Origin: Candidatus Latescibacterota bacterium
GTDB taxonomy: Bacteria > Latescibacterota > UBA2968
Reading direction: 5' to 3'
Assembly (NCBI GenBank): GCA_965208125.1
Contig: OZ242320.1
Span: forward strand, 5,440,001-5,504,000
DNA length: 64,000 nucleotides
In this document: one piece after another, positions 38,917 to 44,634 of the stretch
Layout of the letters: each line of letters opens with the position of its first letter
Numbering within the stretch: position 1 is the stretch's first letter
Program-made: the position numbers and the translations under genes
Notes under the pieces: model-generated
The model's input: only the letters and a program-made list of their open reading frames with translations
Database searches by the model: none
Told to the model about the DNA's origin: nothing

Positions 38917-39010
38917 AGAAGTAAGAAGTGAAAAGTGAGAAGTCCACCCAATACCTCCCCAGGGCGGATGCTTCTTCACCTTCACACTTCTACCTTCACA
39001 CTTCACACTT
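38917..39010. repeat. Inverted arrays of degenerate heptamers (AAGTGAG/CTTCACA)
   Basis: AAGTAAG-AAGTGAA-AAGTGAG...CTTCACA-CTTCTAC-CTTCACA-CTTCACA; related units at 44641-44690 and 45813-45830. Confidence 0.7.
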
Positions 39011-42000
39011 CAACCGGTAACCCCACAAATAACCGACTGTACTCATCCGTCAACGGATCGCGCTCGCCCTTTTGCGCTGCGCGGGCAAATACCACGCCCG
39101 GCGTCTCCGACCTGCGTGCCCGCGCAAAAACACCATATCCACCGGGCGCACTCTGCGTTTCCAGATCGCTCTGAATCGCCAGCATCTCCGCCAGCGCATT
39201 GGCCAAACCCCAGCGTGCACCAATCGCCCGAGCAAAAAGCTCCTCTGGCGTCAGCCCCTCTCGAAAACCGCGCTTCAGAGGCGTGACTCCGCCCCAGGCG
39301 TTCTGCGTCACACCCTGGGGAGCCACATACAGCCGGACTTGCTGCCAATTGGCACGCGCACCACATTCCACCAGAAGCGCAGGAATCCCGAGATCATCGT
39401 CGTCATATCCGCGGAACTGCGCCAACACAGCCGACACCTCATCGGGATAATCGCGCCAGACATCCGGATCATCGCCCTCTGGCGGACCGGGCCAATCGAG
39501 CGACGAACCGATAAACGCACTCATCGACGCACCTGTCTTGCGCGCGGCATCAAACCCCTTATCCCACAACCGCGCTGCCAGATCCAATGCAGCCTTCGCA
39601 CCATCGCGAGCCATTGCATCTGCCATCCAGCCCATCACCTGATGCTTATCGACAAATAATCCATTTCGCTCCATCTCGTCGCCGACAATCTCCGCAATCT
39701 CCTGCCCCCCCTCATCCGTCATACTCATATACGCCAGGCCAAACAGCGCATCGTGCATCGGGTGTACCTTCTCCCGTACAATCAGCCCCGGATCCCGAGT
39801 CAGATGCGCCACCGCCGACAGATGCTCTTCAGCCGACCACTGACCTTCTTCAGTCACCGGCACAAAAATCGCCACCTGATCGCCGTCAAAATCCATATTC
39901 ATCATCTTGCAAATCGCCACACTCACGCGCACGGCATCATCCGCCACGCGCACCGGACGACACGCCACAAAAGCCATTGGCGAAAACGCGGGATTGCGAA
40001 GCACCACAGTCCATAACTCAGCCATAGCCGCATCCAGGGCTTCCTCCGCTTTACTCGACCGCCTATCCACTTCTTCAGCACCCACCTCTCGTGCTGCAAA
40101 CGGCCCGAACAACGTCCACGCCATTTCTTCGGGCACACCGACCTGATCGTATCGCAATTCGGGTGCAGGCACAGCCACCGAACGCCCGCTGAACAACGCA
40201 CGCGCCTGAAATTGCAAACGCGACAACTCGCAAAATGCGCGAACCCGCTCAGAAAGCGTTTCAACCGCCCGATCCACCAGCACATCTGGCGCGCCATTGG
40301 CAATCATCTCCGCCAATCGGTCATTGGCTTCTCGCAATGCGAGAGGCACATCTTCTCCACTCACATGAGTCAACGAATGCCCCGGCAACCACGGATGCGG
40401 AACCGAACGCGCAAGCGCGAAATCTCCATCGCGCTTCAATGAAAACTCGGCACCGCGTTCATCCAGCGCAACAGCCACCCCACCTTTCGACAAATACCCA
40501 ATTAGCTCATCAAACTGAGGAGACGGCACAGTGGGAGCAACAGGACCTACAATGACGCGTTCTGCCAGAGTATCGGCATCATCTCGATCTACCGCGCACG
40601 TATTGAACAAATCGCCAATCACCCCAAAAGCACCCGCTTCTCGCAACGCCAAAAACTCTGTCTCGCCCAACCCTTGATCGTGTTGATCCGGCTTCACACC
40701 CATGTGAATTTTATCTGCCGCCAGATGCAACGTGCGCCCCCAATACACCCACCCCACTGTGGTACGGCGCAGTAGCGCTTCCCCATTCACCGTCAGCGTC
40801 TCCATACCATCTTCTGCCAGCCCATTAGCACTCAAACGACCGCGTATCTCATCGTCTTTGGGCGCATTGAGCGCGGGAACAATAACCGGCTCCCCCTCGG
40901 CCTTTGCAATGCGCCCGACCACAGCTTCGCGCAACTGTCCAATATTCAACCGCGACGGTAAACCACATACACTCACAATAAGCTCCACAGGCGTGCCATC
41001 TGGCAATTTGGGCATCTGTTCATCTCGCACAATGCGCGACACCACCCCCTTAAAACCGTGTCGATTGCTCAGCTTATCGCCCGGCGCAACGCGATTGGGC
41101 AGCATCAGCCGGTTCGCCGCGGATTCGCTGATCACAACTGCATCTTCATGTGCATCCCCATTCCACGCCATAAACGCGGTCAGCAAATTGTACCCCGTCC
41201 AGAAATGCGGATCGCGCGGTTCACATCCCGTTTGCACCAGCGCGGGTTCCGACTCCAGTATCTTGCCGTCATATTGCGTGTGATACGCGTGCCACACACC
41301 CTGCTCATCGCGCTGCATATCGGGACCCGGCGCGCCAATCCACTGCCGCATCATATTCACACCCATCAAAACGCGATTGGTATCATTGTGTTCCAAAAAC
41401 GGAACCACCGAAGCGCCTATCCCCAACCGCTTTTCAGGCGCATCGTCTTCAATCACCAGCTTGCCATCGCGAATAGTCGCCCCCTGAGCCACCTCTAAAA
41501 TCCGCGCGAGATTCGGCCCCTCAGGCGTACAATAAGGACACACGCGCCCATCGTGTGACGGATGATAGCAATTCTCTATTCCCTCATCGGCCTCACCGAT
41601 AATTGGGATCAACGTCACCCGCCGCAAATGAACGTACATATCCTGCAAATTGGTCGCCTGCAAATACTGAGAGGTCGGTTCTTCCGTAAAAAATGTGTGA
41701 ATCCAATCTCCCAACTGTATCCATGTTTCAACTGTATCATCCAGTATCTCTGGCATATTTTCCAGCCGCTCGGCAATATAATCGCGCAATTGCTCCCCCA
41801 CACACCGAATCTCAGCACGCACCAAATCCACATCAGTCGGCGCGGGAACTACCGTCCGAAAAAAACCATCCACCTTAAACCGACCCCATTCATCGGGTTG
41901 AGGAATATTGTTGTACACGATCTCTTGCCCCCCCTGAATCGCGAGATGCAATTCACAGGTATATTCATCCACCGACACCACCCGATACCCCGCCAGCGAC

Positions 42001-42089
42001 ACCCGATCTGCCAACAATTCGGGCAACCCCTTTTGAATAAACGCATCCCACGAAATTTTATGCCACGGCGCCTTTACTGAAAGACTCAT
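39003..42089 (-). CDS. Miniaturised single-chain RNA polymerase beta-beta' (RpoB-RpoC) fusion
   Basis: Collinear RpoB motifs (SQYLQATN...[88 protein letters not shown]) then RpoC motifs ([18 protein letters not shown] at 39879-39899, GARA, FREGL...GARWGLA, GERDPL); RBS AGGAGG before ATG 42089. Confidence 0.93.
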
Positions 42090-42131
42090 CAAATGCCTCC
42101 TGTCTAATTGAGGGTGTGGATACATACAACC

Positions 42132-43925: not shown

Positions 43926-43980
43926 AATCTCCCCTTGTATTTCGCCTTTTATCTGTGGGTATCAGTGTGAAACGCTCACA

Positions 43981-44586
43981 TTACTCGCCTTCATACCCCC
44001 TCCCATACCTCCGCCCCCATGCCTCTGCAAGTTGCTTGCGCGCGTGGAACAGCCGCGACTTCACTGTCCCCTCTGGAATCGCCAGCCGTTCGGCAACTTC
44101 CCGAAGCGCCACCTCATCTTCGTACACCATCTGAAATATCTCGCGTTTTTCCTCTGGCAACGCATCGATCAACGCCTGCAAAATGCGCCGCTGTTCAGCG
44201 CGTTCCAATTGCACATCGGGTCCCAGCGCAGCCCGATCGATCATCCACCCCGGAACAGGTTGTTCTTCGTCCTCCTCATCGTAAAGCGAAGGCATTTCCA
44301 ATGGCTGTTCGCGACGACGACTTTGGCTTCGCAATTGATTCAGCGACAAATTTCTCGCAATCCGAAACAGCCATCCCCGAAAAGACCCTTGCCCCGACCA
44401 TTGATCGGCCCGATTCCAAACTCTGAGAAAAACCTCCTGCGTCAAATCATCTGCAGCGACCGGATCGCGCGTTATCCAGCGCAGACTCTCGGTCACCTGT
44501 GCCTGATAGCGCGCAAACAGAATCGCAAAAGCCTCTTGATCCCGCGCCACAATTCGCTGCATCAAAATCGCGTCCGATGGTGTCAA
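43981..44586 (-). CDS. ECF-family RNA polymerase sigma factor, with no adjacent anti-sigma
   Basis: TTG start after AGGAGG; AADDLTQEVFLRVW, FRGWLFRIARNL, LPEEKREIF...EVAERLAIPEGTVKSRLFHARKQL. Confidence 0.93.
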   Translation of the reverse strand: MTPSDAILMQRIVARDQEAFAILFARYQAQVTESLRWITRDPVAADDLTQEVFLRVWNRADQWSGQGSFRGWLFRIARNLSLNQLRSQSRRREQPLEMPSLYDEEDEEQPVPGWMIDRAALGPDVQLERAEQRRILQALIDALPEEKREIFQMVYEDEVALREVAERLAIPEGTVKSRLFHARKQLAEAWGRRYGRGYEGE

Positions 44587-44606
44587 AAAATATCCTCCTG
44601 TGGGAA

Positions 44607-44634
44607 TCGACACCGCCCAATACCCGAAGGTTCA
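44607..44634 (-). promoter_or_regulatory. Putative ECF-type promoter just upstream of the sigma gene
   Basis: TGAACC-16 nt-TGTCGA followed by TTCCCAC and the RBS AGGAGG. Confidence 0.5.

Follow-up and report, generated by a model that had tools for sequence, protein, structure and literature searches.

The locus described here raises the question of whether a bacterial sigma factor can direct an RNA polymerase (RNAP) reduced to a single chain. The window, which is the whole 64,000-nucleotide stretch of DNA analysed, contains on its minus strand the genes for an ECF sigma factor, an ABC exporter, and a fusion of the RNAP subunits beta and beta' (mini-RNAP), which are read in this order in one direction and are bracketed by two strong terminators (Table 1). 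The layout of three co-oriented genes between two intrinsic terminators had been described in an earlier note on this DNA and is confirmed. The host also encodes separate, normal rpoB and rpoC. To our knowledge, every sigma factor studied to date acts on the five-subunit core. We propose that the sigma factor and the mini-RNAP assemble into a holoenzyme of two proteins and that this enzyme transcribes the cassette encoding it, and we give this proposal about an even chance of being correct.

Table 1 Features of the cassette and its borders
Feature	Position in the window	Strand	Details and basis
Sigma ORF, maximal frame	43981..44613	-	ORF list; 210 aa
Dedicated ECF-type sigma factor, likely start TTG 44586	43981..44586	-	201 aa; Pfam, TIGR02937, alignment
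MsbA-like ABC exporter	42132..43925	-	597 aa, TMD + NBD; Pfam ABC_membrane, ABC_tran
beta-beta' fusion, open frame	39003..42125	-	ORF list
beta-beta' fusion RNAP, likely start ATG 42089	39003..42089	-	1028 aa; Pfam, profiles, AF2 model
Intrinsic terminator closing the upstream unit (orf310)	44712..44739	-	12-pair stem, 7 GC, T tail
Intrinsic terminator closing the cassette	38883..38915	-	14-pair stem, T tail; 88 nt past the RNAP stop codon
Promoter-like element TGAAC-N15-GGTGTC, presumed -35/-10	44609..44634	-	Sequence and conservation
Sigma RBS AGGAGG	44594..44599	-	Read from sequence; TTG start 7 nt on

Measured from the likely starts, the gaps are 55 nt between the sigma and exporter genes and 42 nt between the exporter and fusion genes. 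The likely start of the fusion lies 6 nt past an AGGAGG and agrees with the database gene call of 1028 aa. The region contains 12 terminator-like sites, compared to 9.0 +/- 3.0 in shuffled sequences, so their total is not above chance; the longest stems among them belong to the two sites flanking the cassette. The orf310 terminator, which is kept in the upstream regions of relatives, insulates the cassette from the upstream unit. In several relatives, the T-tract of the terminator on the orf310 side leads directly into the TGAAC element.

The single-chain polymerase and the sigma factor encoded with it

Profiles matched the mini-RNAP to solved beta (E = 3.6e-79) and beta' (E = 3.7e-51), and its AF2 model (pLDDT 91.1, pTM 0.88) gave its best fold matches to RNAP beta and beta' of bacteria and plastids. 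The beta part extends to about residue 537. Catalytic residues were surveyed in 44 mini-RNAP sequences with identity down to 38%. In the motif NMDFDGD (residues 731-737), D735 and D737 are present in all 44 homologs and D733 in 43 of them. The beta-type acidic pair E315/D316, the equivalents of beta E813/D814 and aligned to beta 792-823, occurs in 44/44. The beta basic motif, within a 15-residue segment that aligns to E. coli beta from residue 1054, retains K347 in all sequences and K339 in 41, and R343 is invariant or nearly so. Pfam matches cover RNA_pol_Rpb1_2 (E = 9.4e-15) and Rpb2_6 (E = 5.8e-39). The bridge-helix region, residues about 898-971, aligns to E. coli beta' 716-791 and Mtb beta' 776-864, and the model contains a bridge helix of 32 residues at about 948-979. 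Fork and switch regions are also retained. The beta' barrel triad, the beta barrel residues, and the bridge helix that characterize a two-barrel RNAP catalytic core are thus all present, and the protein is a genuine beta-beta' fusion, as had been claimed; we take bacterial beta and beta' to be its ancestors. Because its catalytic residues are invariant or nearly so in sequences as divergent as 38% identity, the mini-RNAP is probably an active enzyme rather than a relic. The family comprises 337 clusters at 50% identity (E <= 1e-30), and all homologs bearing a name in the database listing are annotated as hypothetical protein.

A canonical core has separate full-length beta and beta' subunits with all modules, whereas the mini-RNAP is a single 1028-aa chain that scores far under every rpoB and rpoC equivalog cut-off. 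Alignment gave neither a counterpart of the beta flap (E. coli beta 824-1053) nor a trigger loop. The rudder is absent, with about 25 residues missing there, as are most of the beta lobes and the jaw. Beyond E. coli beta' residue 791, the only match was a tail alignment without significance (E = 1), and the protein has nothing of the part of beta' that follows the bridge helix, possibly bar a short C-terminal tail. The beta' clamp helices, which are the coiled coil that docks sigma region 2 and NusG, are retained: residues 587-621 align to Mtb beta' 349-383 and to E. coli beta' from 268, form a hairpin of helices 583-597 and 602-619 in the AF2 model, and share 12 of 36 residues with the host's own beta'. 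The conservation of the whole hairpin is 0.53, compared to 0.61 for the remaining protein, and is therefore not higher; it is mainly the heptad core and N589, R591, P601, L604, and R615 that are conserved.

The 210-aa sigma ORF contains Sigma70_r2 at residues 32-100 (1.5e-18) and Sigma70_r4_2 at 143-195 (9.9e-15) according to Pfam, and scores 122.5 bits with TIGR02937 (cut-off 42.9); no specific NCBIfam equivalog reached its cut-off. The possession of sigma2 and sigma4 domains alone in about 200 aa places the protein among the ECF (group 4) factors. The linker joining the two domains is long, conserved, and group-specific in the alignment. Across phyla, the sigma homologs of the cassette are 45-55% identical, whereas the closest paralog within this genome reaches 34%, and they make up an orthologous group of their own. 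A co-encoded anti-sigma factor is typical of the ECF family, though not universal. Pfam recognized no anti-sigma domain in the operon or neighbouring genes, and no third gene is conserved among 21 divergent loci, in agreement with the previous description of the sigma factor as an ECF-type orphan.

Linkage and shared history of the two genes

What is conserved is a cassette of two genes, in which the sigma gene is followed by that of the single-chain minimal RNAP. Among 35 loci from five phyla, 34 include upstream DNA, and in each of these a sigma homolog is located directly upstream in the same orientation. Of 168 genomes surveyed within the phylum, 66 contain the fusion and 63 the sigma ortholog. 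Nearly all matches to the sigma ortholog (64 of 65) have a fusion gene no more than 2.4 kb downstream, mostly at 9-100 bp, and the lone unpaired match sits 401 bp from a contig end. The fusion occurs in three of 401 Chloroflexota genomes, each time with the sigma gene 42-130 bp upstream. Where the cassette is duplicated (genomes G071 and G126), each copy has its own sigma gene, and in many loci stop and start codons within the cassette abut or overlap. The histories of the two proteins also correspond (Mantel r = 0.959, n = 17, with none of 2000 permutations as high), and supported clades agree. Synteny and tree congruence, two of the checks that the earlier note had proposed for its idea, were therefore both strongly positive. 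Linkage and shared history are also expected if the sigma factor just regulates an adjacent effector gene.

The distribution of the cassette is patchy, with 16 of the 49 genera of the phylum containing it, and decayed copies exist (L027, L032, and copies with internal stops in G064 and G071). The sole candidate for a natural sigma-RNAP fusion protein was rejected as a frameshifted read-through, and no other was found. We found no published description of such a sigma/mini-RNAP cassette.

The exporter, which had been counted as a member of a three-gene module, is lineage-specific cargo outside the conserved core. It is present only at loci L001-L004, L006, L013, and L016, with a 40%-identical exporter at L011; within the genus, eight of the 21 genomes carry it, and the loci from the other phyla all lack it. 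The slot between the sigma and RNAP genes is variable, and in close relatives it is empty or occupied by another gene. The GC content of the exporter gene is 47%, compared to 54-59% for the RNAP gene. All NCBIfam equivalogs remain below their cut-offs for the exporter: the best match is TIGR02204 (360 bits, cut-off 780.4), and the MsbA model TIGR02203 gives 330.5 (cut-off 602), so the protein is not assigned as an MsbA lipid A exporter and is a generic type-IV-fold ABC exporter.

Predicted promoter and proposed polymerase partner of the sigma factor

The element TGAACC-N16-TGTCGA, previously noted upstream of the sigma RBS, is present at 44634-44607; we redescribe it as TGAAC-N15-GGTGTC (44634-44609) and presume that it provides the -35 and -10 regions of the cassette. 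It has the ordinary ECF -35/-10 geometry of the AAC...GTC type, which is characteristic of autoregulated ECF sigma genes. The chance expectation in the 64-kb window is 1.0 site with at most one mismatch, so the single site found there is at chance level, and the significance of the element rests on its conservation in other genomes. Of the 34 loci compared across phyla, 29 have the strict motif ahead of the sigma gene and three more have variants; as a sequence element, the predicted promoter is thus conserved. In a scan of the 5.75-Mb genome, the PWM score of the cassette site was 38.3 bits and that of the next-best site 17.5 bits. The element is unique in this genome, and in four other genomes scanned it is about as frequent as expected by chance. 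A sigma/mini-RNAP holoenzyme would therefore have no regulon beyond its own cassette.

Based on these observations, a mechanism can be proposed. Initially, the host polymerase, probably using the same sigma factor, would have to transcribe the cassette. Sigma region 2 may then use the beta' clamp helices that the mini-RNAP has kept as its dock, while the sigma factor would recognize the TGAAC-N15-GGTGTC promoter. The resulting two-protein holoenzyme would transcribe its own operon, including the gene in the slot, here the ABC exporter, and the cassette would move to a self-sustaining loop independent of the host core. A possible output is transcription that persists while the host polymerase is blocked. 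We infer the binding of the sigma factor to the mini-RNAP, the activity of the latter, initiation at this promoter, and the biological output.

The holoenzyme is favoured by the intact catalytic residues, by the survival of the sigma2 docking module amid extensive deletion elsewhere, and by the two-way linkage, the private orthologous sigma factor, the shared history, and the absence of a conserved anti-sigma or other neighbour. The predicted complex of the sigma factor with mini-RNAP residues 232-1028 argues weakly in the same direction: its ipSAE was 0.42, compared to 0.00 for the best of three controls. Among 80 solved complexes, 58 attained the ipSAE mark, as did two of 110 mismatched pairs; at scores <=0.60, just seven of those 80 complexes and both mismatches attained it. 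The pLDDT of the partner was 66, and the runs shared at least 40% of contacts. Sigma-RNAP pairs are similar to complexes of known structure, and the predictor may have passed this pair through memorization. The complex prediction that had been suggested separated the pair from the controls with a weak score. Against the holoenzyme speak this weak score, the loss of the beta flap, the prospect of a regulon confined to the cassette, a clamp-helix hairpin no better conserved than the remainder of the protein, the lack of a natural sigma-RNAP fusion, and the lack of a detected trigger loop, although YonO is active without one (PMC5467207). Of the two mechanisms that the earlier note had offered, the mini-RNAP as cognate core of this sigma factor is tentatively favoured.

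The main alternative, with a lower but appreciable probability, is that the sigma factor uses the host five-subunit core only and autoregulates the operon, and that the mini-RNAP is a regulated product acting without this sigma factor. The mini-RNAP might in that case be promoter-independent or otherwise targeted, as may also be the case for YonO. ECF sigma factors are often encoded beside genes under their control, and both the two-domain architecture of the sigma factor and the geometry of its predicted promoter are standard. Start-up of the cassette needs the host polymerase anyway, and the clamp helices are not especially conserved. In all holoenzymes known to us, the flap bears the flap-tip helix, the seat of sigma region 4. 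The loss of this sigma4 anchor from the mini-RNAP favours the host core, which, given the ordinary -35/-10 geometry, fits more simply than a flap-less enzyme. However, a plain regulator-target pair is unlikely to have stayed so exclusive over five phyla, with all sigma-ortholog matches but one adjoining a fusion gene, private sigma factors in the duplicates, and frequent translational coupling. The retention of the sigma2 docking hairpin in a protein that lost most other surface modules, and the weakly positive binding prediction, also speak against the host core as the only partner.

We consider it improbable that the cassette is a conflict system, providing anti-phage defence or antibiotic bypass, in which the surfaces on which phage or small-molecule inhibitors of host RNAP act are gone and a cargo gene or RNA product is expressed during host transcription shut-off. 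The patchy spread in the phylum and in Chloroflexota, the relatives in five phyla, the variable slot between the two genes, and the decayed copies are consistent with such a role. In the alignment, the mini-RNAP also has Q in place of E. coli beta D516, which lies in the region of the rifampicin pocket at a site of importance for rifampicin resistance. However, the mini-RNAP matches no PADLOC family, the cassette has no conserved effector or neighbour, and the surrounding genes in the window are chromosomal housekeeping genes, with no integrase or phage context. A conflict system would be compatible with the holoenzyme rather than opposed to it.

Although the absence of an anti-sigma gene, the kept clamp helices, and an operon order like that of sigma/anti-sigma pairs would suit a catalytically irrelevant decoy that acts as an anti-sigma factor through its clamp helices or titrates other host transcription factors, as the earlier note had offered in part, such a pure decoy is very improbable because in both barrels the residues that bind metal and substrate show little or no variation among the 44 sequences, the protein retains its fork, switch, and bridge-helix regions, and a 1028-aa active-site scaffold is superfluous for that role. 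Sigma sequestration could be a by-product of holoenzyme formation, and the two roles are compatible.

If the holoenzyme exists, it would be the smallest known enzyme to use a sigma factor, and one without a beta flap. It would define the minimal core set for sigma-directed initiation, in which clamp helices suffice and the flap is dispensable, and would provide structural biology with a 140-kDa model of promoter opening. For synthetic biology, it would offer a compact transcription module that comes from bacteria, is orthogonal to the host, and differs from the T7 type, and the reduction or build-up of multisubunit polymerases would become testable. We give slightly less than an even chance to the cassette representing a new class, that of a sigma-dependent, flap-less, two-protein RNAP (about 115 kDa + 23 kDa) that arose through fusion and reduction of bacterial beta and beta', is self-transcribing, crosses phyla, and carries a cargo slot independent of the host core. 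Even if the sigma factor merely regulates the gene, the mini-RNAP family deserves notice as a widespread, uncharacterised second RNA polymerase of bacteria.

Comparison with known RNA polymerases

Full-length beta/beta' fusions (NF011417 and NF007172) are also joined in one frame and in the same order. Unlike the mini-RNAP, these proteins of about 2840-2890 aa keep all domains and are the cell's only RNAP. The mini-RNAP scores 167.7 bits with NF011417 (cut-off 4632) and 156.5 bits with NF007172 (cut-off 5372), and is therefore a member of neither family.

The RNAP of yeast VLEs (K2ORF6p/K2ORF7p), compared here by its published description, is likewise a pared-down msRNAP with beta followed by beta' in a single chain of comparable size, 982 aa (PMC6211774, PMC2919709). 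As described, nearly all of its clamp has been lost, and with it the coiled coil (PMC6211774), whereas the mini-RNAP keeps its clamp helices. It also requires a second small subunit with the C-terminal regions of beta', uses the UCS promoter and no sigma factor, and is of eukaryotic or viral origin according to these accounts (PMC6211774, PMC2919709). The authors of 2018 stated that the VLE RNAP fusion had no known counterpart in any other RNAP (PMC6211774).

Like the mini-RNAP, YonO from the Bacillus prophage SPbeta consists of a single chain in the 100-kDa range, has two barrels, and lacks a trigger loop; it is reported as a proven processive DNA-dependent RNAP, active without that loop; a minimal single-chain enzyme of such a kind can therefore be active (PMC5467207). 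Its published description assigns YonO to an RdRP-like branch and gives it only few catalytic residues in common with msRNAPs (PMC5467207), whereas the mini-RNAP aligns long and significantly to beta and beta' and, by that description, falls outside a YonO-like class without msRNAP homology past a few catalytic residues. Neither a sigma partner nor a promoter factor is known for YonO.

ECF sigma holoenzymes, of which two with M. tuberculosis sigma-H (5zx2 and 6kon) are among the fold matches, also resemble the proposed enzyme. Shared features are a core homologous to beta and beta', in which the fork region, clamp helices, bridge helix, and NADFDGD motif are found, as well as a regular two-domain ECF sigma factor and a predicted promoter of the AAC...GTC type. 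The proposed enzyme differs in that one 1028-aa chain stands in place of alpha2-beta-beta'-omega (about 3300 aa), in that it has no flap, rudder, trigger loop, or jaw, lacks most of the beta lobes, and is without the remainder of the C-terminal half of beta', and in that the sigma factor is private to the mini-RNAP gene.

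Composition of the cassette and its variable slot

The unit at this locus is a conserved cassette of two genes, an ECF-type sigma factor and a single-chain β-β′ RNA polymerase (mini-RNAP), with its own predicted promoter, and the ABC exporter encoded between them is cargo. The earlier note had described an insulated operon of three genes. As it stated, three co-oriented genes lie between two terminators (ORF list and terminator scan; see table), and no anti-sigma gene was found. Terminator-like sites occur in the region at chance level (12, against 9.0 ± 3.0 in shuffled sequences); the two flanking ones have the longest stems among them and are placed exactly at gene ends. 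Direct reading of the sequence places AGGAGG 7 nt ahead of TTG 44586 in the sigma gene and 6 nt ahead of ATG 42089 in the mini-RNAP gene. These codons are likely the true starts, giving a sigma factor of 201 residues and a mini-RNAP of 1028, the latter being the length of the database gene call.

Features of the locus in the window, and segments of E. coli β and β′ (reference L041) kept in the mini-RNAP according to the profile alignment of 44 homologs
Feature	Coordinates	Strand or side	Remarks
Terminator, hairpin and T-tract	window 44739->44712	upstream flank
Promoter motif	window 44634-44607
ECF-type sigma ORF	window 43981..44613	minus	ORF list
ABC exporter ORF	window 42132..43925	minus	ORF list
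Mini-RNAP ORF	window 39003..42125	minus	ORF list; 1040 aa
Terminator, hairpin and T-tract	window 38915->38883	downstream flank
310-aa ORF and DksA/TraR finger gene	window 44763-46859	minus
BlaI-type and BlaR1-type genes	window 36708-38791	minus
427-aa repeat protein gene	window 35461-36744	minus
Kept segment of β	448-578		fork region
Kept segments of β	652-701 and 792-823		barrel with E813/D814 pair
Kept segments of β	1054-1145 and 1177-1342		lysine motif to the very C-terminus
Kept segment of β′	268-514		clamp helices to NADFDGD; about 25 residues gone at the rudder
Kept segment of β′	716-791		F-loop and first half of the bridge helix

The three-gene module was not upheld, as the exporter is not conserved. 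Gaps between the sigma and polymerase genes were classified in 21 genomes of the genus from match coordinates and gene content. The exporter (gap of about 1.9-2.05 kb) is present in eight of them, an unrelated 396-aa ORF belonging to no Pfam family (about 1.25 kb) in three, and nothing (21-101 bp) in nine; the remaining genome has a gap of 597 bp. Across 21 divergent loci there is no third conserved gene besides those of the sigma factor and the polymerase. The cassette therefore consists of a two-gene core and a variable slot, which, judged from gene content, seems to take different cargo genes. The slot of locus L011 holds a different ABC exporter, 40% identical to that of the window, and the GC content of the exporter gene is 47%, compared with 54-59% for the polymerase gene. 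The 396-aa ORF lies at L008:6743-7933 (best Pfam E = 0.03), and the gaps of about 1.25 kb belong to genomes G079, G080 and G081.

Logan contigs from four metatranscriptome runs (X1 to X4; three studies of sponge and coral) span all three genes and are mostly 90-95% alike, although as assemblies they may include carried-over DNA. Record 5 of X1 (40747-43167), an assembled contig that may derive from DNA, bridges the exporter-polymerase junction, and the assembled record 8 of X2 runs across the downstream terminator. Contigs end at 44621 (X1, X4) and 44611 (X3), beside strain-variable positions of the spacer; these ends were rejected as transcription start sites and read as assembly breaks, since they coincide with the variable positions.

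Linkage of the two genes and their predicted promoter

The sigma factor contains only the sigma2 and sigma4 domains. Its closest paralog in the host genome reaches 34% identity (92 bits, out of 13 HSPs), whereas the sigma factors that adjoin fusion genes in Armatimonadota, Planctomycetota, Chloroflexota and Spirochaetota reach 45-55%. The sigma factors of the cassettes thus form a separate orthologous group, marked in their alignment by a long, conserved linker between sigma2 and sigma4.

The earlier note had proposed synteny and tree congruence as checks on the pairing of the two genes, and both bore it out. Scanning one genome per species with a peptide pattern gave 35 loci, and a sigma homolog is located directly upstream and co-oriented in all 34 that include upstream DNA (L034, 1151 bp long, was left out of the count). 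At many loci the stop codon of the sigma gene touches the start of the polymerase gene or overlaps with it. In an independent test, the sigma and fusion proteins were searched for separately in 168 genomes of the phylum. The fusion was found in 66 genomes (16 of 49 genera) and a sigma ortholog (E <= 1e-30) in 63. All but one of the 65 sigma matches are co-oriented with a fusion gene and less than 2.4 kb upstream of it, mostly across gaps of 9-100 bp; the exception, in G156, has a contig end 401 bp away. Fusion genes with no sigma match at E <= 1e-30 are those of G143 (full-length), G146 (N-terminally short) and G149 (at a contig edge), and the fragments in G135 and the second match of G037. 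Two genomes, G071 and G126, carry two cassettes apiece, each with its own sigma gene. Among 401 sampled genomes of Chloroflexota the fusion is present in three, in all of which the best sigma match is 42-130 bp upstream.

Pairwise distances of sigma factors and mini-RNAPs are strongly correlated (Mantel r = 0.959, reached in none of 2000 permutations; n = 17), and where support is good, the clades in one tree match those in the other. The sole difference is the order within L018/L022/L030, which is weakly supported in the sigma tree. Since linked genes are expected to share their history, the correlation shows inheritance and transfer as a unit, not binding. The cassettes of G106 and G107, from a different family, are 77-81% identical to that of the window in both proteins, and their mates in family f4 have versions 47% and 53-55% identical; this pattern suggests that the cassette has moved as a whole within the phylum.

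Some copies are interrupted. The fusion gene of L027 has an in-frame stop, that of L032 is split and frameshifted together with a frameshifted sigma gene, and the fusion matches in G064:C156 and G071:C1:1427405-1430581 each contain one TAG or TAA; decaying copies thus exist in the family. At L013:5667-11123 the exporter and polymerase frames have no intervening stop (open 6141-11123) and the sigma gene has an internal deletion (206 query residues over 471 nt), so that this copy is either decaying or an assembly error.

The TGAACC-N16-TGTCGA element reported in the earlier note is present upstream of the sigma gene and is better described as TGAAC-N15-GGTGTC. This strict motif was found within 230 nt upstream of the sigma gene in 29 of 34 loci. 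The spacer is N14 in L019, near-variants occur in L031 and L032, L022 shows no such element, and L028 lacks upstream DNA. Flanks and spacer vary freely between phyla, which indicates selection on the two motif blocks, and their arrangement in the sequence matches an ordinary ECF promoter. The strict motif occurs three times in the 5.75-Mb host genome, which does not exceed the zero to five occurrences obtained with alternative spacer lengths. A position weight matrix, trained on 14 non-redundant instances that include the cassette's own site, scored that site at 38.3 bits and the runner-up at 17.5 bits. Four other genomes contain one to six strict matches each, which is the chance level. A look-alike site in G169:C86 was rejected as a regulon member; it lies inside an Hsp20-like ORF on the opposite strand. 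The genome scan suggested in the earlier note hence ranked the cassette site first and revealed no regulon beyond the cassette, either with the strict motif and the matrix in the host or with the strict motif in the four other genomes. The predicted promoter appears to serve the cassette alone.

Architecture and possible function of the mini-RNAP

The first half of the mini-RNAP matches Pfam Rpb2 domains 3 and 6, and the second half Rpb1 domain 2. The NCBIfam rpoB and rpoC models match it piecewise, with scores far under their cut-offs. The profile of the 44 homologs matches solved bacterial β with E = 3.6e-79 and β′ with about 4e-51. When the profile was mapped onto E. coli β and β′, weaker matches were found to β′ 76-131 and 568-640 in addition to the kept segments. 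In this alignment the mini-RNAP lacks a counterpart of β 824-1053, the flap, as well as of the trigger loop, the jaw and the remaining C-terminal half of β′. The 50-residue C-terminal tail is strongly conserved among the homologs; its best match, β′ 1331-1345, is non-significant (E = 1). All catalytic residues are invariant or nearly so in the 44 homologs, at identities down to 38%. The AlphaFold2 model calculated from the alignment is confident (pLDDT 91.1, pTM 0.88); residues 583-619 form a helical hairpin in it, and residues 948-979 a helix of 32 residues. Its top Foldseek matches are bacterial and plastid β and β′ chains (E down to 3e-24) and, in a viral library, RNA polymerase subunits of giant viruses and phages. 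About 285 kb from the cassette the host encodes ordinary rpoB (open frame of 1290 aa) and rpoC (1368 aa), so the fusion is an additional polymerase and not the sole one of the cell.

Residues of about 140-160 (window about 41610-41670) align to the rifampicin-pocket segment of E. coli β, 505-531. The family consensus has Q at the position equivalent to D516 and retains H526 and R529. Changes of D516 in E. coli β cause rifampicin resistance, and the mini-RNAP might be insensitive to rifamycins.

The earlier interpretation is partly supported. Joint action of the sigma factor and the mini-RNAP is plausible. We consider it an even question whether the two form a two-protein holoenzyme that transcribes its own operon and any cargo. 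Region 2 of the sigma factor would dock on the kept clamp helices, the sigma factor would then read the conserved promoter, and the holoenzyme would transcribe the operon together with any gene in the slot. This model is favoured because the sigma2-docking coiled coil is kept while most surface modules are shed, because sigma orthologs are found apart from a fusion gene in only one of 65 matches, because the two genes are often translationally coupled, because duplicated cassettes retain private sigma factors, and because no anti-sigma is present. Complex prediction of the sigma factor with mini-RNAP residues 232-1028 gave an ipSAE of 0.42, compared with 0.00 for the best of three controls (partner pLDDT 66; the runs share at least 40% of contacts). 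Of solved complexes, 58 of 80 reach the mark applied to such scores, as do two of 110 mismatched pairs; at 0.60 or under, just seven of these solved complexes and both mismatches reach it. Sigma-RNAP complexes are well represented among solved structures, so the pass may reflect likeness only, and the prediction, proposed in the earlier note, lends weak support to binding.

Several observations argue against the holoenzyme. In every holoenzyme known to us the flap anchors sigma region 4, and the mini-RNAP has lost the flap although the promoter keeps normal -35/-10 spacing. Conservation of the clamp hairpin does not exceed that of the whole protein (0.53 versus 0.61), and a holoenzyme whose sole target is the cassette's own promoter would have no evident biological purpose. 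Larger proteins that include the sigma factor were also sought, and no true sigma-polymerase fusion was found, which is weak evidence against the model. The sole match, P0121 (640 aa, on a 2145-nt contig), has sigma2 and the linker, then about 60 residues that look out of frame in place of sigma4, and then the RNAP N-terminus; it was rejected as a natural fusion and read as a frameshift.

It is less probable, though a serious alternative, that the sigma factor uses the host core only and the mini-RNAP is merely its regulated product. The host enzyme must make the first transcripts, so this reading and the holoenzyme may both hold, in sequence. A conflict system, in which the cassette would sustain expression of some product under inhibition of the host polymerase, is improbable; it would agree with the patchy occurrence, the slot for cargo and the decaying copies, and is compatible with the holoenzyme. 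The polymerase matches no defence family in PADLOC. There, the exporter gene matched generic ATPase models and the sigma gene gave a marginal match (9.2e-4), and PHROGs returned generic RNAP and sigma families only. Least probable is that the mini-RNAP serves purely as a decoy or anti-sigma, a role that accords poorly with its invariant active site.

Related polymerases and neighbouring genes

The mini-RNAP is not a member of the canonical core RNAPs, nor, by its NCBIfam scores, one of the full-length β/β′ fusions. By sequence it is not YonO-like either, since the catalytic residues that YonO has in common with msRNAPs are reported to be few (PMC5467207). By description, the nearest architectural analogue is the yeast VLE polymerase, a minimal fusion that reportedly has lost the clamp with its sigma2-docking coiled coil and uses no sigma factor (PMC6211774); the mini-RNAP differs in keeping this coiled coil. 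Full-text literature searches yielded no report of a minimal β-β′ fusion from bacteria that is paired with a sigma factor of its own. The main text of the ECF reclassification paper does not contain the terms sought (PMC7826278); its supplements, which list conserved neighbours per ECF group, might mention such a pair, and Iyer and Aravind 2012 might likewise be relevant.

All named database homologs are annotated as hypothetical protein. The family is not small: 337 clusters at 50% identity were found (E <= 1e-30) among 1.84 billion representatives, and two clusters in the ESM Atlas, of about 1006-1026 aa, comprise 73 and 135 members. Other uncharacterised β-β′ fusion clusters measure 1221-1787 aa (Atlas) and 1948-2522 aa (representatives, E ~1e-60), and by length, reduced fusion polymerases may form a graded series.

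Directly upstream of the cassette, behind its own terminator, is a gene pair encoding a 310-aa protein of no family and a 345-aa DksA/TraR C4 zinc finger protein (Pfam E = 3.1e-08). DksA-type fingers bind the secondary channel of RNAP. Members of the close clade, and L035 (53-56% identity), keep the pair beside the cassette; the other divergent loci do not. On the other side of the cassette are genes for a BlaI-type repressor and, after it, a BlaR1 (M56) protein that carries two fused TonB_C domains; relatives (L002, L009, L017) differ in how many TonB_C repeats they have, and contain two BlaI/BlaR pairs within 8 kb. The 427-aa protein consists of about ten tandem KWGYIN...GE.VI.PQFD units, and its repeat gives rise to long spurious ORFs on the antisense strand.
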